Assembly: GCA_963730185.1 (NCBI GenBank)
Contig: CAVSQW010000006.1
Coordinates: forward strand, 416,001-480,000
Source: an uncultured Gemmatimonadales bacterium
Lineage (GTDB): Bacteria; Gemmatimonadota; Gemmatimonadetes; Gemmatimonadales; GWC2-71-9
Length of the DNA stretch: 64,000 bases
Direction of reading: 5' to 3'
The translations under genes were made by a program, and so were the position numbers. The notes under the pieces are model-generated. The model saw nothing but the letters and a program-made list of their open reading frames with translations. It searched no databases and was not told the DNA's origin. Shown piece by piece: positions 1 to 14,904 of the stretch. The number at the start of each line of letters is the position of its first letter. Position 1 is the stretch's first letter.

Positions 1-1
1 C

Positions 2-30
2 TTGCGAACCACGTCGGGGCTCCGCAGAAT
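2..30 (+). promoter_or_regulatory. Putative sigma70-type promoter of the mutase operon
   Basis: TTGCGA (2-7), 17-nt spacer, CAGAAT (25-30), upstream of a ~150-nt leader. Confidence 0.3.
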
Positions 31-185: not shown

Positions 186-1874
186 GTGAACAAGACCAAC
201 GAGGTGGCGGCGACCCCGGGATCGCCCGACGTGGAGACCTGGCAGCGCACCACCCTTGCTGCCAGCCTCGAGCGGCTCCGACCGCGACGCGAGGCGTTCA
301 CGACGCTGTCGGGACTGCCGGTCAAGGAGCTCTACACGGCCGACGACCTGAAGGACGTCGATCCGGCCCGGGACATCGGGTTTCCGGGGGAGTATCCCTA
401 TACCCGGGGCGTCCACGCGACCATGTACCGCGCCCGGCCCTGGACGATTCGCCAGGTCGCCGGTTTCGGCACGGCCGAGGATACCAACGGACGCTACCGG
501 TACCTGCTGGCGCACGGGGAGACCGGGTTGTCGACGGACTTCGACCTTCCCACCCTCCTCGGCTACGACTCGGATCACCCGATGGCGGTGCCCGAGATCG
601 GCAAAATCGGCGTCGCGGTGGATACCATCGACGACGTCCATCTCCTGATGAAGGACATTCCGCTCGATCAGGTCTCGACCTCCTACACCGTCAACGCGTC
701 GGCCTTCGTACTGATGGGGATGTACGAGGTGGTGGCGAAATCCCAGGGGGTGCGCGCCGACCAGATCACCGGAACCATCCAGAACGACATTCTGAAGGAA
801 TACACCGCGCAGAACGAGTACATCTATCCGCCGGCCGATGCCGTCCGGCTGGTCGTCGACACGATGGAGTACGCGGCCACGACGATGCCGCGGTACAACC
901 CCGTCAGCGTCTCCGGCTATCACATTCGGGATGCCGGGTCGACCGCGGTGCAGGAGCTGGCGTTTACCCTGGCGGCGGGTCACTGCTACGTGACCGAGGC
1001 CGTCGAGCGCGGCTTGTCGGCCGATTTCGTGGCCCCGCGAGTGTCCTTCTTCTGGAACATCCAGAACGACTTCTTCGAGGAGATCTGCAAGCTGCGGGCG
1101 GCGCGGCGGCTCTGGGGACGGATGATGCGCGACTGGGTCGGCGCCAAGGATCCCCGTTCCTGGACGATGCGGGCCCATTCGCAGACCTCGGGCGTGAGCC
1201 TGACCGCGCAGCAGCCCGACAACAACATTGCCCGAACGGCGATTCAGGCCCTGGCCGCGGTGCTGGGTGGCACCCAGTCGCTCCATACGAACTCGAAGGA
1301 CGAGGCATATCAGATTCCCTCGGAAGGCGCGATCAAGATCGCGGTCCGGACCCAACAGATCCTGGCCTTGGAGAACCGGGTCGCGGATGTGGTCGACCCG
1401 TTGGGCGGCTCCTACTACGTCGAGTCGCTCACGACCCGGCTCGAGGAGGAGGCCGAGGCGCTGATCCGCCAGGTGCTGGATCGGGGCGGCATGGTCCAGT
1501 GCATCCAGGACGGGTTCATTCAGCGCCAGATCGCCGATGCGTCGGCCGCCTACCAGCAGGCCGTGGAGGCGAAATCCGAATTCATCGTCGGTGTCAACGT
1601 GCATGCCGAGCCGGAGGGCGAGCTGCCATTCGAGCCGTTCGTGCTCGATCCGGGTCTGGCCGAGCGACAGATCAAGCGAACCCAGGGGATTCGGCGGGCT
1701 CGGGCCCAGGCGGAGGTGGCCAGCGCCCTCAGGGCCATCGAGCAGGCGGCTCGAGGTGGCGAGAACACGATGCCCAGTACGGTTCGCGCGATCAAGGCGC
1801 AGGCAACCGTGGGCGAGATCTGCGATGTGCTCCGGGAAGTCTTCGGCGGGTACCGGGCGCCGATCGTCTACTAG
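186..1874 (+). CDS. B12-dependent acyl-CoA mutase large (substrate-binding) subunit, methylmalonyl-CoA mutase family, HcmA-like
   Basis: Motifs PGEYPYTRG, WTIRQVAGFG, GLSTDFD, QNDILKE, SGYHI, GGTQSLHTN, DPLGGSYYVE. No B12-binding domain. GTG at 186 follows the RBS GGGAGG; the ORF is open from 93. Confidence 0.95.
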   Translation: MNKTNEVAATPGSPDVETWQRTTLAASLERLRPRREAFTTLSGLPVKELYTADDLKDVDPARDIGFPGEYPYTRGVHATMYRARPWTIRQVAGFGTAEDTNGRYRYLLAHGETGLSTDFDLPTLLGYDSDHPMAVPEIGKIGVAVDTIDDVHLLMKDIPLDQVSTSYTVNASAFVLMGMYEVVAKSQGVRADQITGTIQNDILKEYTAQNEYIYPPADAVRLVVDTMEYAATTMPRYNPVSVSGYHIRDAGSTAVQELAFTLAAGHCYVTEAVERGLSADFVAPRVSFFWNIQNDFFEEICKLRAARRLWGRMMRDWVGAKDPRSWTMRAHSQTSGVSLTAQQPDNNIARTAIQALAAVLGGTQSLHTNSKDEAYQIPSEGAIKIAVRTQQILALENRVADVVDPLGGSYYVESLTTRLEEEAEALIRQVLDRGGMVQCIQDGFIQRQIADASAAYQQAVEAKSEFIVGVNVHAEPEGELPFEPFVLDPGLAERQIKRTQGIRRARAQAEVASALRAIEQAARGGENTMPSTVRAIKAQATVGEICDVLREVFGGYRAPIVY

Positions 1875-1896
1875 TCCGTCACGGGAACCGAGAACC

Positions 1897-2295
1897 ATGA
1901 GTCGACCGTTGCGTGTGGTCGTGGCAAAGCCGGGGCTGGATGGTCACGATCGTGGAGCGAAAATCATCGCGCGAGCCTTCCGCGACGCGGGGATGGAGGT
2001 CATCTACACCGGGATCTTTCAGACGACGGAGATGATCGTCCGCACGGTCCTCGAGGAGGATGCCGACGTGCTGGGACTGAGCATCCTCTCGGGAACGCAC
2101 CTGCATTTCGCCGAGGAGATCTGCCGAGCGCTGACCGAGCAGGCCGTGAAGGAGGTGCTGGTGGTGATGGGCGGCACGATCCCGCCGACCGACATCGGCG
2201 CCGTCAAGGGCTTCGGGGTGGCCGAGGTGTTCGGGCCGGGGACGGCCACGGGCACGATCGTGGACTTCGTCCGGCAGTGGCACGATGCCCAATGA
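1897..2295 (+). CDS. Acyl-CoA mutase small subunit (cobalamin-binding domain)
   Basis: AKPGLDGHDRGAK (DxHxxG base-off/His-on motif), GLSILSG, GGTIP. Directly downstream of the large subunit. Confidence 0.95.
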   Translation: MSRPLRVVVAKPGLDGHDRGAKIIARAFRDAGMEVIYTGIFQTTEMIVRTVLEEDADVLGLSILSGTHLHFAEEICRALTEQAVKEVLVVMGGTIPPTDIGAVKGFGVAEVFGPGTATGTIVDFVRQWHDAQ

Positions 2296-3845
2296 CCCGG
2301 CTGGAGCACGGTAGTCCAGCGCGAGTGGACGCGCTCCTGGCCCGGGCGGCGATCAGCGTCCCCAACCGGGAGGCGGTCCGCTTCGAGGGACGGAGCTGGA
2401 CCTATCGGGAGGTCCACGACCGGGCCCGCCGCCTCGCGGGCGGCTTGGCCGCGATCGGCGTGGCCCCGGGCGACCGAGTCGCGCTCTGGACACCCAACCG
2501 ACCGGAGTTCGTCGAGGTGTTCTTCGGCGTGCCCCAATTGGGCGCGATCCTCGCTCCGCTGGACTGCTGGTGGCACTGGCGCGAAGCCGCCGAGGCGCTC
2601 GGCCAGCTGCGGCCGAAGGTGCTCATCGTGGGGTCGCCACAGGTGGCGATGGTGGCGCAGGAGCTCGAGGCGATTCGCGAGCTCGGGGTCGAACGGGTGC
2701 TGTGTCTCGACCAGCCGCCGGGCGGCGTGATCCTGGGCTCCTATCAGCGGACTCTCGCCGACGCGCGGCCGCTCGAGGCGCCGTTGCCGGTCGACCCCAG
2801 TGCGCCGGCCGCGATCCTCTTCACCTCCGGCTCGACCGGCCGATCGAAGGGTGCCGTCCATACCCACGCCGGTCTCCTGGCGGCGGCGACCACGATGACG
2901 GCCGAGCTGCCCTTCGTCGACGGCGAACGGACGCTCCATTTCCTCCCCCTGTTCTCCTCCTGTCTCGAGCACCTGCTCCCCCTCACGCTGGCGCGGGCGA
3001 CCCACCTCATCCTGCCGGCCTTCGACGCGCAGTTGGTGTGGGACAGCGTCCGCGAAGCCCGTGTCACCCATTTCGACGCCGTGCCCACGACCCTCCGCCG
3101 GCTCCTGGAGGTGGCGCCGAGCGAGATCCCGTCGTCGCTGCGGCTGATTTCGTACGCCTCGGAGCCAATGCCCGAGCCGCTGATCACGGCGCTGCTCGAG
3201 CGACTGCCGAGCGTCACGTTCGTCCAGTTCTACGGCATGATCGAGCAGCTCTGTCTCACCGTGCTGGAGGCGCCCGACCAGCTCCGGAAGATCGGAACGG
3301 TGGGCCGCCCGATGCTGGGCGCCGAGCTCGCGGTCCGGAGCCTTCCCGGCATCGACGGTCCCGGAGAGATCGTCGCGCGGGGTCCGACGATGTTCGCCGG
3401 GTACTGGCAGGACCCGGCCACGACGGCGCAGGTGATGCTCGACGGATGGATGCGGACCGGCGACCTGGGCCGCTTCGACGAGGACGGATTCCTCGTGCTC
3501 GAGGGCCGTCTCAAGGAGATGATCAAGACGGGCGGGCTCACGGTGGTCCCGGCCGAGGTCGAGGCCACGCTGGCAGGACACCCCGCCGTTCGGGACGTCG
3601 CGGTGATTGGCGTCCCCGACCCGGAGTGGGGCGAGGCCGTGCATGCGATGGTGGTGCTGGTGCCTGGAGCCACGGTCGGGGAAACGGAGCTCAAGGGGTA
3701 TTGCCGCGACCGGCTGGCAGGCTACAAACGACCGAAGGTCATTCACGTGGTGCCGGAGCTACCGAGAACCGGGATCGGCAAGATCGCTCGTCGGACCGTG
3801 CGCGACCACGTGTTGGCCGTCGAGACCCCCGAAAGGCGACGGTGA
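2292..3845 (+). CDS. AMP-forming acyl-CoA ligase (ANL superfamily)
   Basis: FTSGSTGRSKG P-loop, FYGMIE, WMRTGDLG, GRLKEMIKTGG, LPRTGIGKI. ATGA overlap with the upstream gene. Confidence 0.93.
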   Translation: MTRLEHGSPARVDALLARAAISVPNREAVRFEGRSWTYREVHDRARRLAGGLAAIGVAPGDRVALWTPNRPEFVEVFFGVPQLGAILAPLDCWWHWREAAEALGQLRPKVLIVGSPQVAMVAQELEAIRELGVERVLCLDQPPGGVILGSYQRTLADARPLEAPLPVDPSAPAAILFTSGSTGRSKGAVHTHAGLLAAATTMTAELPFVDGERTLHFLPLFSSCLEHLLPLTLARATHLILPAFDAQLVWDSVREARVTHFDAVPTTLRRLLEVAPSEIPSSLRLISYASEPMPEPLITALLERLPSVTFVQFYGMIEQLCLTVLEAPDQLRKIGTVGRPMLGAELAVRSLPGIDGPGEIVARGPTMFAGYWQDPATTAQVMLDGWMRTGDLGRFDEDGFLVLEGRLKEMIKTGGLTVVPAEVEATLAGHPAVRDVAVIGVPDPEWGEAVHAMVVLVPGATVGETELKGYCRDRLAGYKRPKVIHVVPELPRTGIGKIARRTVRDHVLAVETPERRR

Positions 3846-3849
3846 GCCC

Positions 3850-4233
3850 ATGGAAGGCGTCATTCGAGTGCGGATGTCCGCCGCGGACGGTCATTACGGC
3901 GGTGGCCTGGTCGCCGGTGCGACGGTGTTGAAGCTGGTCGGTGATGCGCTCACGGAAGCGCTGATCCGCCGCGACGGCGACGAGGGGCTGGAGCGGACCA
4001 TGACGGTCGAGCTGCTCGCGCCGGTGTACAGCGGGGACTACCTCGAGGCGAGGGCGAAGCTGCTGTCGATCGGGAACTCCTCGCGGCGATTCGAGTGCAC
4101 GGTGCACAAGCTCATTCGACTGGTGAGTCCGGACGACTCGGCGGCCGACGTGTTGAACGAGCCGTTGCTCGTTCTGAAGGCCACCGGAGTGGCCGTGGTC
4201 CCCTTGCCGAAGCAACGAGCGCGGGGATCATGA
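3850..4233 (+). CDS. kal: 3-aminobutyryl-CoA ammonia-lyase (Kal)-like hotdog-fold protein
   Basis: 127 aa; IRVRMS..D.HYGG.LV.GA, DGDEGL, APVYSGDYLEA, GNSSR, DSAADVL.EP and P..KQR match recalled Kal sequences over the full length. Confidence 0.85.
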   Translation: MEGVIRVRMSAADGHYGGGLVAGATVLKLVGDALTEALIRRDGDEGLERTMTVELLAPVYSGDYLEARAKLLSIGNSSRRFECTVHKLIRLVSPDDSAADVLNEPLLVLKATGVAVVPLPKQRARGS

Positions 4234-5198
4234 CCGCCCCGGAGGCGCTCCTGGCGCGGGCCCGGGCCGGGCAGATTGCCCCGACGGCGCGCCTGCTCTC
4301 GATCGTCGAGAACGACGAGCCAGGAGCGGAGCAGGTGATTCGCGGCACCTTCGCCGACGTCGGGCGGGCGATCCGGATCGGAATTACGGGGTCGCCGGGA
4401 ACCGGCAAGAGCACATTGGTGGCCTCGCTCCTCGCGGCCTATCGGCGAGTCGCGTCTCGGGTGGCGGTCATCGCCGTCGACCCCTCCAGTCCGTACACCG
4501 GAGGGGCGATCCTCGGGGACCGAATCCGGATGCGGGACACCTCCCTCGACCCGGGTGTCTTCATCCGGAGCATGTCGAATCGAGGCGCCTCCGGAGGGCT
4601 GGCCCGGGCGACGGGACGCGTCGCGGACCTCCTCGATGCGCTGGGGTTCGAGGTGATCCTGGTGGAGACGGTCGGCGCGGGGCAGCAGGAGATCGACGTG
4701 GTCCGGCTGGTCGACACGGTCTCGGTCCTCACGATTCCCGGCGCCGGTGACGACATTCAGGCGATCAAGGCCGGCATCCTCGAGATCGCGGACGTCCTGG
4801 TGGTCAACAAGGCCGACCAGCCGGGCGCGGACCAGGCCGTCAGGGACCTGACCCAGATGCTGAGCCTCGGCGCCCCCCGCAACGACTGGAAACCGCCGGT
4901 CGTCCGCACCTCGGCGGCGACCGGCGCCGGGATTGATGACCTCGTCGCCGCCTTGGCGCGGCACCGGGCCTGGGCCGCGGCGTCCGGAGAGACCGAGCGC
5001 CGCCGCCAGGCGGCGATGCGCAGCGAGCTCGAAGCGCTGATGCGCGAGCGGGTGCTTCGAGAGCTGGCCCGCCGGATCGATGCCACGGCGGTTACCGACG
5101 CCGCGTCGCGGGTGATGCGGAAGCAGCTCGATCCCTATGACGCGGTCGAGCTGCTCTTGGCCGGCACCGAGAGAACCTCCGCCACCCGAACCGAGTGA
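4230..5198 (+). CDS. meaB: MeaB/ArgK-family GTPase chaperone for the B12 mutase
   Basis: GITGSPGTGKST, AVDPSSPYTGGAILGDRIRM, ETVGAGQ, KAGILEIAD, VNKAD. ATGA overlap with kal. Confidence 0.95.
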   Translation: MTAPEALLARARAGQIAPTARLLSIVENDEPGAEQVIRGTFADVGRAIRIGITGSPGTGKSTLVASLLAAYRRVASRVAVIAVDPSSPYTGGAILGDRIRMRDTSLDPGVFIRSMSNRGASGGLARATGRVADLLDALGFEVILVETVGAGQQEIDVVRLVDTVSVLTIPGAGDDIQAIKAGILEIADVLVVNKADQPGADQAVRDLTQMLSLGAPRNDWKPPVVRTSAATGAGIDDLVAALARHRAWAAASGETERRRQAAMRSELEALMRERVLRELARRIDATAVTDAASRVMRKQLDPYDAVELLLAGTERTSATRTE

Positions 5199-8103: not shown

Positions 8104-8965
8104 CTAGATCGTCGGCAGGACGAGCCGCACGTGCTCCGCGAAGGCGCTCACCAACGCGCTCGGTTGATCGCTGTCCACCGTGAGCGCGATCCCCACGCTC
8201 GGTAACGGCGGCAAGCCATTCTCCGCGGGGAGCACCCGCAGGTCCTCGGGCACGGCGGTCCGGGTGAGCACCGCGATCGCCTGCCCGGATCGGACCACCG
8301 CCGTCAGGCCCGCCAGACTCGCGCTGGCGTAGGCGATCCGATAGGCCCGACCGATCGCCTCGAGACTGCGGCGCGCCGCCTGGTGATCGAGCGTGTCAGG
8401 GTCGGTCAGCGCGAGCTGAAGCGGATCGACGCGCGGCACGTTCGACCCGACCGAGCCCACCCACACGAGCGGCTCCCGCCGAATGACCGTCTTGCCCTTC
8501 TCGCGCTCGGCCAAGGAGACGAGGGCGAGGTCCAAGCCATGGCGCTCAAGCCGCTCGAGGAGCCGGGGCGTGTGAGCGCAATGCACCTCCACGAGCACCC
8601 CCGGATGCTCGCGGGCGAAGCCGCGGAGCAAGTAGGGCAGGAAGACCACCGCGTAGTCGTCCGGACAGCCGAAGCGGATCGTCCCGACGAGTCCCTTTCC
8701 CGAGAGCTCGGCGAGCGCCTCGTCGTGGTACCGGAGGATCCGGTGGGCGTGGGCGAGCAGCCGCGTCCCGTGCGCGGTGAGGCTCACGCCTCGCCCGCTT
8801 CGATCCAGCAGGCTGTGACCGACGATCTCCTCGAGCCGCTTCACCTGGAGGCTGATGGCGGCCTGGGTCTTCCCGACCCGAGCGCCCGCCCGGCTGAGCG
8901 TTCCGGTCTCGGCGATGACGGCGAACGTCCGGAGCAACCGGAGGTCCAGCTCTTCGATCATGGCC

Positions 8966-8967
<2 letters not shown>
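8104..8967 (-). CDS. dgdR: LysR-family regulator, DgdR-like
   Basis: N-terminal HTH (LLRTF...TQAAISLQVKRLE). GTIRFGCPDDYA, DPDTLDH and AYASASLAGL..VRSGQA resemble recalled Burkholderia DgdR. Divergent from dgdA. Confidence 0.8.
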
Positions 8968-10382
<1,415 letters not shown>

Positions 10383-10411: not shown

Positions 10412-11296
10412 ATGGATCTCGTCGTCCGAAACCTCAGCAAGACCTATCCGAACGGCGTCCGCGCCCTCGACGGGATCGACCTCACGGTCGGTCCCGGGAT
10501 GTTCGGCCTCCTCGGCCCCAATGGGGCGGGCAAGTCGAGCCTGATGCGCACGCTCGCAACGCTCCAGCTCCCGGACACCGGCTCGATCCGGTTCGGGGAC
10601 CTCGACGTCCTGGCCGAGCCGGACGGGCTCCGGCGAATGCTCGGGTACCTGCCCCAGGAATTCGGGTTCTATCCCAGCCTGTCGGCCGAGCACACCCTCG
10701 ATCACTTCGCGGTGATGAAGGGCGTGATCGACCGGGCCGAGCGCCGATCCCTGGTGGCCGGCCTGCTCCAGCAAACGAATCTCTACGACGTGCGGAAGAA
10801 AGCGGTCGGCTCCTTCTCCGGCGGGATGAAGCAGCGGCTGGGCATCGCGGTGGCGCTGGCCGGGTCGCCCAAGCTTCTCATCGTCGACGAGCCGACGGCG
10901 GGGCTCGACCCGACCGAGCGGCACCGGTTCCTCAACCTGCTGGCGGAGATCGGCGAAGAGATCGTGGTGCTGCTCTCGACCCACATCGTCGAGGACGTTC
11001 GCGAGCTCTGCCAGGCGGTCGCCATCGTCGATCGGGGTCGGGTCGTGCTGCAGGGAGATCCGCGTGAGATCGTGGGCACCATGCGCGGCAAGGTCTGGCG
11101 GCGGGCGGTGGAGAAGCGCGACCTGGCGGCCGTCCGGGCCGGGCACCGGGTCATCTCGGTCCAGCTCCTGGCCGGGGCACCCGTGGCGCGGGTCTACAGC
11201 GAGACCCCGCCGGCCGGCTTCGAGCCGGCGGAGCCGGACCTCGAGGACGTCTACTTCTTCCATCTCGCCCCGGCCGACCGGGAGCTGGCGGCGTGA
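10412..11296 (+). CDS. ABC transporter ATP-binding protein
   Basis: GPNGAGKS, FSGGMKQR, LIVDEPTAGLD, STH. Confidence 0.93.
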   Translation: MDLVVRNLSKTYPNGVRALDGIDLTVGPGMFGLLGPNGAGKSSLMRTLATLQLPDTGSIRFGDLDVLAEPDGLRRMLGYLPQEFGFYPSLSAEHTLDHFAVMKGVIDRAERRSLVAGLLQQTNLYDVRKKAVGSFSGGMKQRLGIAVALAGSPKLLIVDEPTAGLDPTERHRFLNLLAEIGEEIVVLLSTHIVEDVRELCQAVAIVDRGRVVLQGDPREIVGTMRGKVWRRAVEKRDLAAVRAGHRVISVQLLAGAPVARVYSETPPAGFEPAEPDLEDVYFFHLAPADRELAA

Positions 11297-14200
11297 TGTT
11301 CGGCGCCCTCTTCCGGTACGAGCTCCGGTACCATCTCAGTCGTCCGATCACCTGGCTTTACTTCGCGCTCTTCACCGCCGGATCGTTCGCGCTTGCCGGG
11401 TCCGACGTGATCCAGCTCGTAGGCGGCACCGGCCAGGTGATGCGCAACGCCCCCTGGGTGATCGTCCGGGCGATGCAGCTCGTGGCGACGGTGGGTCAGA
11501 TCGTCGTCGCCGGCCTGATCGGGAGCTCGATCCTCCGCGACTACGAATACCAGACGCACGAGCTCGTCTTCACCACCCGGATCAGCCGGTTTGCCTACCT
11601 GGGCGCGCGCTTCAGCGGCGGATTCGTGGTGATGGTGTTCGTCCACCTCGGCATTCCCCTCGGTCTCGCGCTCGGCACGCTGATGCCGGGGATCGATCCG
11701 GCCAAGCTCCTGCCGCTGAACCCGGCGGCGTACCTGGTGCCGTTCGTGGGGTTGGTGGTGCCGATGATTCTGGTGCTCTCGGCGATCTACTTCGCGGTCG
11801 GCGCCTTCACCCGGAGCGCCTTCGCGGTCCACACTCAGGGGATCGTGCTGTTCGTCGCCTGGCTGATCGCCCAGACCCTGATCGGCAGTCTGAACGACAT
11901 GAGGCTGGCCGGGTTGCTGGATCCGATCGGCTCGGCGCCCTACCTGATCGCCACCCGCTACTGGACGGTGGTCGAGAAGAACACCCAGATCGCGCCGTGG
12001 GGCGGGCTCCTGCTCGCCAACCGCCTGCTCTGGACCGGCGTGGCGCTCGCGATCGTGGCCCTCACCTTCGCCTTCTTCCGGTTCCGGGCGGCACCCCCCA
12101 CGATCGGCCGGCGCCGCAAGGTCGTTGCGGAGACACGGGAGGCCCCGGCCTTCAGCCTCGGGGCGCCCGACCAACGGTTCGATCGGCGGGCCTGGTGGCG
12201 GCAAGCCCGCTCGACCGCGGGGCTCACCTTCTGGGGCATCGTCCGTCAGGTCTCCTTCGCGGTCATCGTCACGATCGGCCTCGTCAACCTCGGGATCGCG
12301 GCGGCCTATGCGGAGACCATCTTCGGGCAGAAGGTCTGGCCGGTCACCTACACCGTGGTCGAAGTGCTCGACGGACAGTTCTTCCTCTTCTTCGTGGTCC
12401 TGATCGCCCTCTACGCCGGCGATACCGTGTGGCGGGAGCGGGAGCTTCGGTGCGACCAGATCGTGGACACCCTTCCCGCCCCGACCGGAGCGCGGGTGCT
12501 CGGCAGTCTGACCGGTCTGATCCTGGTACAGATCGCCGTGCTGGTGATCCTCGCGGCGGCCGGCATCGTGTTCCAGGCGGCCACCGGATACTTCCACTTC
12601 GAGCTCCCGCTCTACTTCGAGTTCCTGTTCGGGACGCTCCTCCCTTCCCTGATTCAGCTGACCGTGTTCGCGGTGGCGGTTCACGTTCTGGTCGACCACA
12701 AGTACCTGGGCCACGCGCTGGTGATCCTGGCCTTCGTGCTCCGGATCGCGGCGCCGAGGCTCGGATTCGAGCACCCGCTCTTTCAATTCGCCAAGGCGGC
12801 CCCGTTCCGCTACTCCGACATGAACGGCTTCGGCCCGTACGTGCCGGGGCTCTTCTGGAACGCGCTCTACTGGAGCGGCGTGGCCGGGCTGCTGGGCGTG
12901 GGGGCGTATCTCCTCTGGGTGCGGGGCACCGACACGCCCTGGCGGATGCGGCTCCGGGAGGCGGGCCGCCGCTGGCGGGGGCCGGTGCGTCCGCTCGCCG
13001 GAGCGTGCCTGCTGGTGACGCTCGGCGCCGGCGGCGTGGTGTTCTACAACGCCAATGTGCTCAACCACTACCATCCGGCGTCCTATGCCCGGCGGCTGGC
13101 CGCCGAGTACGAGCGGGTCTACCGGCCGATGACCCGGATTCCGACCCCGAAGCTGGTGGACGTCGATGCCCGGGCCGACCTCGAGCCGGAGCACCTCGCG
13201 TTCGGGGTCAGCGGCACGTTCACCTACGTGAACGAACAGCCGAGCCCGATCGACACCATCCTGGTCTCGATGTTCGCGTCCCGCGAGCTCCGGGTGGACA
13301 GCATGGGCTGGGGCCGGCCGGCGACTTTGGTGACGGACGACTCCACCCACGGTGCCCGACTCTACCGGCTCGACCCGCCGCTCGCCCCGGGCGATACCGT
13401 TCGGCTCCGCTATCGCGCGCACTATCGAGCCCGCGGCTTTCCGATCGGTGGACCGGACACGGCGGCCGCGCAGATCGGCATCCGAAACGCGATCTCGGGC
13501 AACGGCTCGTTCCTCAGCTTCCAGTACTTCCCGTTCGTCGGATACCTGACCTGGCGCGAGCTGGAGTCGGACGCGGAGCGGCGGAAGGAGGGCCTGGCGC
13601 CCAAGGTGCGGGCCGCGCCGATCGACGACGACTCGGCCCGGGCGGTGACCTACCTGGGGATCAACGCCGACTGGATCAGCTTTCACGGCACCGTGAGCAC
13701 GGCGCCCGACCAGATCGCGATCGCCCCGGGATACCTGGTCCGCGAGTACCAGGAGAACGGGCGCCGGGTATTCGAGTACCGCTCGGACGAGCCGATGCTG
13801 GCCTTCTATTCCTTCCTTTCGGCGCGATACCAGGTGAAGCGCGACACGGCCGGCGGGATCGCCCTCGCGGTCTACTACCACAAGGGCCACGAGTTCAACG
13901 TGGACCGGATGATGGCGGCGATGAAGGACGCGCTGGCCGACTATTCGGCCCGATTCGGGCCCTATCAGTTCAAGCAGCTCCGGATCATCGAATTTCCGCG
14001 CTACTCCCAGTTCGCCCAGTCCTTCCCCAACACCGTGCCGTTCTCGGAGAACATCGGGTTCATCCTTCGGGCCGGACACCGCAACGACGACATCGACACG
14101 CCGTACTACGTGACCGCCCACGAAACCGCGCACCAGTGGTGGTTCCATCAGGTCATCGGCGGCAACGTCCAGGGCGCCACCATGCTGTCCGAGTCCCTGG

Positions 14201-14904
14201 CCAACTACTCGGCGCTGGTTCTGATGGAGAAGACCTTCGGCCTGAACAACGTGCGGAAATTCCTGCTCCAGCAGCTCGATTCCTATCTGGTGGGCCGGGG
14301 ACGGGAAGCCAAGGCCGAGCGGCCGCTGATGCTGGTGGAGAACCAGTCGTACATCCACTACAACAAGGGCTCGCTCGCGCTCTACGCCCTCCGCGACCTG
14401 ATCGGCGACGAGGCGATGAACCGGGCGCTGTCGCGGTTCGTGAAAGACAAGGCGTTCCAGAAGCCCCCGTTCACCACCAGCCGGGAGCTGCTCGGCTATC
14501 TGGAGGCCGAGACGCCGGACTCGGTGCGGTACGTGCTCGATGATCTCTTCCGGACGATCACGCTCTGGGACGACGCCGTCGAGGAGGCGACCGCCACCCG
14601 CCGCCCGGACGGCCGGTACGACGTGGCCATCCAGGTCCGCGCCGCCAAGGCGCGGGCCGACAGTCTGGGAAACGAGCACCGGGTGCCGATCGCCGATCTG
14701 ATCGACATCGGGGTGTTCGGGGAGCCGGCGCCGGGATACAGCCTCGGCAAGCCGCTCTACCTGGAGAAGCAGTGGATCCGGACGGCGGACACCACCTTCC
14801 ACGTCGTGGTCGACGGGCTCCCGCGGAAGGCCGGGATCGACCCCTACGACAAGCTCATCGACCGAAACCCGCGGGACAACGTGATGACCGTCGGACTCAA
14901 GTGA
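11293..14904 (+). CDS. ABC-2 permease / M1 aminopeptidase fusion protein
   Basis: Multi-pass hydrophobic N-terminal half. C-terminal half has FAQSF, HETAHQWW (HExxH), ESLANY and YNKG of M1 peptidases. Confidence 0.9.
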   Translation: MMFGALFRYELRYHLSRPITWLYFALFTAGSFALAGSDVIQLVGGTGQVMRNAPWVIVRAMQLVATVGQIVVAGLIGSSILRDYEYQTHELVFTTRISRFAYLGARFSGGFVVMVFVHLGIPLGLALGTLMPGIDPAKLLPLNPAAYLVPFVGLVVPMILVLSAIYFAVGAFTRSAFAVHTQGIVLFVAWLIAQTLIGSLNDMRLAGLLDPIGSAPYLIATRYWTVVEKNTQIAPWGGLLLANRLLWTGVALAIVALTFAFFRFRAAPPTIGRRRKVVAETREAPAFSLGAPDQRFDRRAWWRQARSTAGLTFWGIVRQVSFAVIVTIGLVNLGIAAAYAETIFGQKVWPVTYTVVEVLDGQFFLFFVVLIALYAGDTVWRERELRCDQIVDTLPAPTGARVLGSLTGLILVQIAVLVILAAAGIVFQAATGYFHFELPLYFEFLFGTLLPSLIQLTVFAVAVHVLVDHKYLGHALVILAFVLRIAAPRLGFEHPLFQFAKAAPFRYSDMNGFGPYVPGLFWNALYWSGVAGLLGVGAYLLWVRGTDTPWRMRLREAGRRWRGPVRPLAGACLLVTLGAGGVVFYNANVLNHYHPASYARRLAAEYERVYRPMTRIPTPKLVDVDARADLEPEHLAFGVSGTFTYVNEQPSPIDTILVSMFASRELRVDSMGWGRPATLVTDDSTHGARLYRLDPPLAPGDTVRLRYRAHYRARGFPIGGPDTAAAQIGIRNAISGNGSFLSFQYFPFVGYLTWRELESDAERRKEGLAPKVRAAPIDDDSARAVTYLGINADWISFHGTVSTAPDQIAIAPGYLVREYQENGRRVFEYRSDEPMLAFYSFLSARYQVKRDTAGGIALAVYYHKGHEFNVDRMMAAMKDALADYSARFGPYQFKQLRIIEFPRYSQFAQSFPNTVPFSENIGFILRAGHRNDDIDTPYYVTAHETAHQWWFHQVIGGNVQGATMLSESLANYSALVLMEKTFGLNNVRKFLLQQLDSYLVGRGREAKAERPLMLVENQSYIHYNKGSLALYALRDLIGDEAMNRALSRFVKDKAFQKPPFTTSRELLGYLEAETPDSVRYVLDDLFRTITLWDDAVEEATATRRPDGRYDVAIQVRAAKARADSLGNEHRVPIADLIDIGVFGEPAPGYSLGKPLYLEKQWIRTADTTFHVVVDGLPRKAGIDPYDKLIDRNPRDNVMTVGLK

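Follow-up and report, generated by a model that had tools for sequence, protein, structure and literature searches.

What does a coenzyme B12-dependent acyl-CoA mutase act on when its two genes are followed by those for an AMP-forming CoA ligase, a homologue of the 3-aminobutyryl-CoA ammonia-lyase Kal and a MeaB-type GTPase? This question was raised by an operon at the left end of a 64,000-nucleotide stretch of DNA (the window, G000:C6:416001-480000), taken from a genome of 5.27 Mb that is 82% complete (G000) and whose closest genes in named records belong to Gemmatimonadota. An earlier note on the window had read the operon as a pathway for 2-aminoisobutyrate (Aib), an amino acid of fungal peptide antibiotics (peptaibiotics), and comparison with related genomes and proteins supported this reading. 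The operon is probably a catabolic one for 2,2-dialkylglycines, Aib foremost, in which Aib would be converted to Aib-CoA, then to 3-aminobutyryl-CoA, and then to crotonyl-CoA and NH3; isovaline is possibly a further substrate. Reading of the sequence together with family profiles confirmed that the five genes are co-oriented and joined by ATGA overlaps or gaps of at most 22 nt: 22 nt lie between mutA and mutB, mutB and the ligase gene share an ATGA, 4 nt separate the ligase gene from kal, and kal and meaB share another ATGA. A sixth gene, missed in the earlier note, encodes an alpha-amino acid ester hydrolase; it overlaps the meaB stop codon and is translationally coupled to the operon.

Probable regulation in common with dgdA

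The strongest evidence for an Aib pathway comes from the predicted regulation of the operon. Further along the window lie a dgdA gene and, divergent from it, a LysR regulator gene (Table 1). The dgdA product scores far higher against the 2,2-dialkylglycine decarboxylase of Burkholderia than against the next family (216 bits), and the LysR protein resembles the dgdA-divergent LysR of Burkholderia and Paraburkholderia; on the basis of synteny we take it to be DgdR, which is said, in work by Keller et al. in 1990, to be induced by Aib. The proximity of dgdA and its regulator had already been counted in favour of an Aib pathway, and this point was strengthened by a common operator, a common regulator, and a remnant of dgdA upstream of the mutase operator. 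The remnant (G000:C6:415579-415728, L001:779-928) consists of 150 bp of the 5' part of the gene, is 86% identical to the intact copy, and lies about 270-420 bases before window base 1.

The regions upstream of mutA resemble the dgdR-dgdA spacer. A 38-bp operator matrix was built from 10 such spacers (eight from the window's genus and two from Burkholderiaceae), with no mutase region in the training set and the window's own dgdA site held out. When both strands of G000 were scanned (10,547,760 positions, background adjusted to local GC), the top score fell on the held-out dgdA site; next came a site just outside the window, 190 bases upstream of the start of mutA, and the third-ranked site scored 15.6 bits. 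Within the mutA site, two AT(A/T)A-rich boxes show the T-N11-A spacing of LysR sites, and a TTG lies 6 bases further on. With a fixed GC background instead, the same site ranked 14th, behind AT-rich islands. Such AT-rich stretches in this 70% GC genome (G000:C7, about 716000-753500, and C12, about 426000-432100) may be horizontal islands or binning artefacts.

Among operons with a mutase of the window's kind (type 1, defined below), the operator was found before the first gene at 17 of 18 loci from Gemmatimonadota and Gammaproteobacteria, with scores of 10.6-42.1 bits, and it still preceded the operon where that first gene was an ABC or ester hydrolase gene. The sole locus without it, in G064, has only 155 bases upstream of its first gene; three others (G009, G014 and L118) ended before the promoter and were outside the count. 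In two Steroidobacteraceae genomes the operator was also located before the type-2 kal gene and before genes for a second ligase, a thiamine diphosphate (ThDP) lyase, peptidases and TonB receptors. It was found at none of four loci for 2-hydroxyisobutyryl-CoA mutase (HCM) or the presumed pivalyl-CoA mutase (PCM), Kal loci, mostly of the lysine type, gave no match above 14 bits over 1,065,332 bases, and the two other mutases of G000 had no operator score above those of shuffled sequences. A DgdR-type regulator occurs in 12 of the 14 relatives that bear the operon and in all five further genomes, was not found in G009 and G011, both of which are fragmented, and is encoded directly beside mutA in G002, G063 and G263. 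Searches for a dgdA orthologue were negative in Peristeroidobacter soli, a Steroidobacter genome, G063 and G263, and in G263 no lyase was found either. Since the site before mutA ranks second in the genome, and the operator precedes the operon at all but one of these loci and was not found at HCM and PCM clusters, the operon most likely belongs to the same regulon as DgdA, the known Aib enzyme. Compared with the DgdA/DgdR system of Burkholderia cepacia (1D7R), of which the window holds true orthologues and the same operator, the regulon here would extend to a B12 operon.

The mutase, the Kal-like protein and the ligase

A TIM-barrel large subunit, a small subunit with a DxH B12-binding motif (GLDGHD in mutB) and a MeaB chaperone place the enzyme in the adenosylcobalamin (AdoCbl) acyl-CoA mutase family. 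The closest solved relative of the large subunit is HcmA of HCM (4R3U); identity is 47% to HcmA of Methylibium petroleiphilum and 38% to Xaut_5043 of Xanthobacter autotrophicus, where we take Xaut_5040-5044 to be the PCM operon. Val91, Asp118 and Gln209 in the active site correspond to Ile90, Asp117 and a Gln in HcmA, this Gln standing at the position of Arg207 of MCM, and Val, Asp and Gln are common to all 14 aligned cluster mutases. In HcmA, Asp117 holds the substrate hydroxyl. An I90V mutant of HcmA has been studied, according to PMC12025749. As in HcmAB/HCL/MeaH of Aquincola tertiaricarbonis and M. petroleiphilum PM1, a split AdoCbl mutase, a CoA ligase and a MeaB-type chaperone are encoded in one operon, and the STDFD motif with its Asp is kept; the window system differs in its separate mutase clade, in Val for Ile90, in a FadD-like ligase in place of HCL, in the added Kal homologue, and in a LysR regulator with a DgdR-type operator where HCM clusters have GntR. 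The Xanthobacter operon likewise combines mutase, MeaB, ligase and hotdog genes, and is unlike that of the window in its L/L/N-type motif, its PaaI-like hotdog protein and its lack of a DgdR operator.

A mutase phylogeny, proposed in the earlier note, was run with 22 proteins, RcmA of Kyrpidia and the characterised IcmA being outside the set. It placed the window protein in a type-1 clade (support 100/100), apart from HCM and from a Kal-linked type-2 mutase (P. soli and the Steroidobacter genome) that was sister to HCM (100/100); types 1 and 2 as a single clade were rejected (AU p 4e-5, LG+G4). One Kal clade and one ligase clade nonetheless accompany both of these mutase lineages. Type 1 appeared as sister to HCM plus type 2 with support of 82 in one tree and was not resolved in the 22-protein tree, so that the ancestry of HCM relative to the Kal-linked mutases is not established. 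Judged by the aligned residues and the tree, the window mutase belongs to an uncharacterised clade near HCM and is not an HCM member. Dozens of other mutase large-subunit representatives (within P0241-P0390) have active-site motifs unlike those of MCM, ICM, HCM or PCM, and P0246 and P0261 likewise have the STDFD motif.

A profile built from 115 lysine Kal proteins gave the hotdog protein 146.8 bits, the PaaI-type protein of the Xanthobacter mutase operon 3.3 bits and a MaoC-like protein 7.7 bits; the hotdog protein is about 50-58% identical to lysine Kal. It contains the DxHY and DxxTE..DGDEG motifs of the Kal/Acl ammonia-lyases and retains 37 of 57 positions invariant in the 115 lysine Kal proteins, including the polar residues H15, Y16, D32, T35, E36, D42, D44 and E45. 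Its sole significant relative in the PDB is a beta-alanyl-CoA ammonia-lyase (Acl), and the predicted model (pLDDT 92) gave 4MTU as the top fold match (Z 17.8, rmsd 1.8, 126 residues aligned), followed by the best thioesterase at Z 15.0 and an (R)-hydratase at Z 11.5. In predicted function the protein is thus most like Kal, though it falls below the Kal cut-off.

Kal loci were classified (n=172, of which 114 have lysine-fermentation genes only), and 30 lysine loci were drawn at random for a 70-row tree. The window protein fell in a clade of its own with 32 rows (SH-aLRT 99), among which are near-copies and several short loci; 31 rows adjoin mutase, ligase or meaB genes, and the remaining one is a 3.2-kb contig with none. 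None of the 32 adjoins kce, kdd or kam genes, so the synteny recurs without lysine-fermentation genes. KamD (PF09043) was found in none of nine operon genomes, with a positive Fervidobacterium control; kdd, kamD and kamE were not found in G000, a wording preferred to absent because the genome is 82% complete. A detectable lysine 5,6-aminomutase, as an alternative source of the Kal substrate, is lacking. The Kce family was tried as a marker and set aside as too broad to inform, matches occurring in five of five genomes.

A Kal-like gene was present in 12 of 60 relatives, with ligase and meaB genes adjacent to it in all 12. The gene arrangement is not due to chance, and kal linkage, the lack of which the earlier note had named as one refuting outcome, was found to be conserved. 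A full-length type-1 mutase was encoded in 12 of 61 genomes, 11 of them with kal; the contig of the twelfth, G004, breaks off within mutB. Collection scans covered the best 80 loci each. In wider samples the operon is rare, with Kal-like matches in 5 of 401 genomes of the phylum and 3 of 201 genomes of the P. soli family. One of the five phylum matches (G308:C36:8365-8736, L225) is an outlier at 48% identity: this Kal-like gene is interrupted by an internal TAG, and the 3.4 kb examined there contain no mutase gene. The plasmid collection contained no type-1 mutase, all 434 records being below 60%.

The operon does contain an AMP-forming CoA ligase as the earlier note stated, but one unlike the HCL-type ligase of HCM clusters, to which its similarity is not significant (E 0.095); it also lacks a ligase feature of the HCM system described in PMC7176365. 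The protein and its relatives, at least 120 of which exceed 60% identity, make up a separate clade, and an unusual pocket is suggested by invariant S223, C224 and Y288-A-S-E291 and near-invariant E226 and D262. Fold searches matched generic ANL enzymes only.

Proposed route and competing substrates

In the route proposed for Aib, the regulator would sense the amino acid and open the promoter at window 1-30, and the ester hydrolase and neighbouring peptidases could release Aib from its esters or from peptides; the neighbouring genes suggest a peptide-bound source, but this is a weaker step because these genomes are rich in peptidase- and permease-type genes anyway. The ligase would convert Aib to Aib-CoA. 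In the mutase the adenosyl radical would abstract a methyl hydrogen, the CO-SCoA group would migrate, and a hydrogen would return to the amine-bearing carbon to give 3-aminobutyryl-CoA; Asp118 may hold the amine as its HcmA counterpart holds the hydroxyl, and the protonated amine on Asp118 may shield the radical from oxidation. MeaB proteins load and protect B12, a service that the operon's MeaB would provide to the mutase. As expected of its family, the Kal homologue would eliminate NH3 and so draw the equilibrium onward, giving crotonyl-CoA for beta-oxidation; crotonase and 3-hydroxybutyryl-CoA dehydrogenase homologues are present in G000 and next to some clusters. This route would retain all four carbons, whereas DgdA, with pyridoxal phosphate (PLP), gives off acetone and CO2 and yields alanine (PMC7782822).

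Several points weigh against this proposal. The support is comparative only, and most loci come from one genus, so that locus counts are not independent. Small amino acids other than Aib may also induce DgdR. The operators of G010 and G003 (10.6 and 13.2 bits) lie below the 14-bit line of the control, though none of 200 shuffles reached these scores. The hotdog protein scored 126.9 bits on NF052388 (Kal), under the cut-off of 160, and for this reason is not filed as Kal; 20 of the 57 invariant positions are changed, including F48 and Y51, which are common to Kal and Acl, and these changes may indicate another stereoisomer, another chain length or another activity. The presumed PCM operon also has a hotdog gene, annotated as PaaI-type, and a KamA/EpmB-like gene and a Kce-family gene occur elsewhere in G000. 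In the ligase, Ser223 stands at the position of the amine-binding Asp of amino-acid adenylation domains (D235 of GrsA), as mapped by motif, with the conserved E226 and D262 near it in sequence; the ligase therefore lends no direct support to an amine substrate. Finally, five loci (those of G007, G008, G013, P. soli and the Steroidobacter genome) have beside the cluster a gene for a homologue of the ThDP enzyme 2-hydroxyisobutyryl-CoA lyase, preceded by the same operator; a ThDP protein encoded in the HCM cluster of M. petroleiphilum is 44% identical to this homologue.

It is conceivable, though improbable, that the operon serves 2-hydroxyisobutyrate or another hydroxy acid related to it, the mutase being an HCM variant that leans towards the (R) form and the hotdog protein a 3-hydroxybutyryl-CoA dehydratase or proofreading thioesterase. 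The mutase evidence would suit this, since the closest solved mutase is HcmA and the Asp is retained, and the type-2 mutase, sister to HCM, has hbd and lyase genes in its cluster as in M. petroleiphilum; the lyase homologue beside clusters and the PaaI-type gene of the PCM operon point the same way. The operator, however, is that of DgdR and not of the GntR regulator of HCM clusters (PMC7176365), the ligase is unrelated to HCL, and both the profile and the fold scores given above separate the hotdog protein from PaaI-type and MaoC-like proteins, thioesterases and (R)-hydratases.

The same chemistry might also serve an alpha-hydrogen amino acid that induces DgdR, either D-2-aminobutyrate, by way of 3-aminoisobutyryl-CoA to methacrylyl-CoA, or alanine, by way of beta-alanyl-CoA to acryloyl-CoA. 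Such amino acids have ordinary B12-free PLP and flavin routes, and the mutase pocket is nearest to that of HcmA, a tertiary-substrate enzyme. DgdA (PMC7782822) and the lyase homologue (PMC7176365) moreover act on gem-dimethyl quaternary carbons. This explanation consequently has a low probability, even though the hotdog protein's one solved relative is an enzyme for beta-alanyl-CoA, a gene of the FAD-dependent D-amino-acid-oxidase family occurs close to the cluster in G013 and G004, and the two mutase paralogues of Steroidobacteraceae imply at least two substrates; DgdR may also have a wider inducer range.

The lyase homologue scores 450 bits to 7PT1, an actinobacterial enzyme. Of 14 operon-bearing relatives, 10 have a full dgdA and no lyase, and four have the lyase and no full dgdA; the genomes are kin, and the pattern may reflect two or three events. 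In G007 only the 3' half of dgdA (residues 214-436) was found, in mid-contig (G007:C49:74336-75001, L195), and the lyase was found in none of the other 47 genomes. This pattern fits a replacement of DgdA by the lyase, which would then form acetone from Aib-CoA; we know of no lyase activity on Aib-CoA. A disposal of acetone, in which the ThDP enzyme would formylate DgdA-made acetone to 2-hydroxyisobutyryl-CoA for linearisation by the mutase, has a precedent in the pathway proposed for sulfate reducers (PMC7888143) and would agree with the regulon in common with dgdA and with the ThDP enzyme adjoining some clusters. Such disposal would require the joint presence of DgdA and the ThDP enzyme, contrary to the pattern just described, and leaves the ligase and the Kal homologue unexplained, which makes it very unlikely. 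The ThDP protein of the M. petroleiphilum PM1 plasmid RPME01 (L187:9556-11316, WP_011831867.1) may indicate that a strain using the mutase also has a second route by way of a lyase.

The reverse, biosynthetic direction from crotonyl-CoA and ammonia to Aib for a peptide product, which the earlier note had left as an option, is equally hard to credit, for although the mutase and lyase reactions are reversible, the operator is common with catabolic dgdA, AMP-forming ligases drive activation, and the neighbours are peptidases, permeases and TonB receptors, with no nonribosomal peptide synthetase family among the 40 neighbour proteins scanned.

Neighbouring genes and significance of the proposed Aib route

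The features of the locus are collected in Table 1. A sigma-70 promoter scan made no call at its threshold for the hexamers in window 1-30.

Table 1. Features of the operon and of the dgdA region (window positions unless a contig is named)
Feature	Position	Strand	Basis
Predicted DgdR-type operator before mutA	G000:C6:415958-415995		43 to 6 bases before window base 1; rank 2, 21.1 bits
Putative operon promoter, -35 TTGCGA (2-7), -10 CAGAAT (25-30)	1..30	+	hexamers by eye
Acyl-CoA mutase large subunit mutA, type-1 clade	186..1874, GTG start	+	PF01642; TIGR00641 above cut-off; 4R3U E 1e-171
Mutase small B12-binding subunit mutB	1897..2295, ATG start	+	PF02310; TIGR00640 above cut-off
AMP-forming CoA ligase, uncharacterised FadD/MenE-like clade; putative Aib-CoA ligase	2292..3845	+	PF00501+PF13193
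Kal/Acl-like hotdog protein; putative 3-aminobutyryl-CoA ammonia-lyase	3850..4233	+	PF03061; best fold match 4MTU
MeaB-type GTPase chaperone	4230..5198	+	PF03308; TIGR00750 334 bits, cut-off 240.75
Alpha-amino acid ester hydrolase orthologue, likely signal peptide	5195/5207-7108	+	733 bits to 1MPX
LysR regulator, DgdR orthologue by synteny	8104..8967	-	59-63% identity to Burkholderia/Paraburkholderia LysR
dgdR/dgdA operator	8964..9001	+	genome rank 1, 40.2 bits; held out of training
2,2-dialkylglycine decarboxylase DgdA, exact start codon not fixed	9069..10382	+	718 bits to 1D7R

The ester hydrolase matched 1MPX over its full length, far above its score to cocaine esterase (143 bits), and the match includes the GDDWF and QED motifs, presumably those of the carboxylate cluster of alpha-amino acid ester hydrolases. 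Of the 15 type-1 loci whose flanks could be read, 13 have its gene next to the operon. Other neighbours of operon loci encode M1, M19, M20 and S9 peptidases, permeases and TonB receptors. Downstream of dgdA, window 10412-14904 encodes an ABC ATPase and a fusion of an ABC permease with an M1 aminopeptidase; homologues of these ABC genes recur beside the operon in many relatives and are first in the operon in G017. Two complete mutase clusters about 20 kb apart were observed in G061:C3:972000-1012000 and G062:C41:176000-216000 (L209-L211, L030-L032), together with two Kal-like genes, two ligases, pduO, bluB, peptidases, TonB receptors and several DgdR-type operators. This region is a candidate peptide-degrading island in a cultured strain.

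Four distant plasmid Kal-like genes were considered as support for the linkage and rejected, their neighbours being ligases and not mutases. On a Rhizobium plasmid (L216:7666-11613) and a Streptomyces plasmid (L217:7236-12146), a distant Kal-like hotdog domain is accompanied by a PLP enzyme, an adenylating enzyme, a carrier protein and an ectoine-synthase-like gene, apparently in a small biosynthetic cluster. On pTC1 of Paenarthrobacter aurescens (L215:7808-12454), a Kal-like gene lies amid alcohol dehydrogenase, CoA ligase and aldehyde dehydrogenase genes with an amino acid permease gene near, and a role in amino-alcohol or amine catabolism is possible.

What this analysis adds is the operator, the linkage to the regulator and the pattern of dgdA and lyase genes; the reaction and pathway are likely new as well. 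No description of the pathway was found in the literature searched, which left subscription journals and patents mostly outside, and supplementary cluster tables on HCM could list such clusters. The passages of Hibi et al. (PMC7782822) on Aib degradation name only dialkylglycine decarboxylase and an O2-dependent monooxygenase route. That monooxygenase, AibH1H2GF of Rhodococcus wratislaviensis (PMC7782822), resembles the proposed system in its substrate and in its attack on an unactivated methyl group; it differs in using O2 and a diiron hydroxylase and in ending in alanine and pyruvate, where the operon would use radical B12 on a CoA ester and end in crotonyl-CoA.

A wider reading, doubtful as a whole but not far-fetched, is that these are the first aminoacyl-CoA carbon-skeleton mutases and that a third, O2-independent Aib pathway forms the core of a DgdR regulon through which soil bacteria feed on fungal peptaibiotics, with HCM descending from such an amino-acid mutase. 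The regulon would include TonB receptors, the ester hydrolase, peptidases, mutase paralogues for Aib and isovaline, and the ThDP lyase, which would cleave Aib-CoA to acetone imine and formyl-CoA. Descent of HCM from an amino-acid mutase, if true, would explain HCM-like genes in strains from unpolluted sites, and the finding thus bears on the natural substrate of HCM-type clusters in pristine-site strains, a question raised by Rohwerder et al. (PMC7176365). Peristeroidobacter soli JW-3, which is cultured, has both clusters and the regulator.

If the Aib route is correct, amino-acyl-CoAs would be a new substrate class for B12 acyl-CoA mutases, and the operon would provide a third catabolic route for Aib. 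An enzyme linking 3-aminobutyryl-CoA and Aib-CoA could also serve biocatalysis. The linkage hints at the physiological context in which alpha-amino acid ester hydrolases may work, and the pathway would bear on how Aib-rich fungal peptide antibiotics are recycled in soil.

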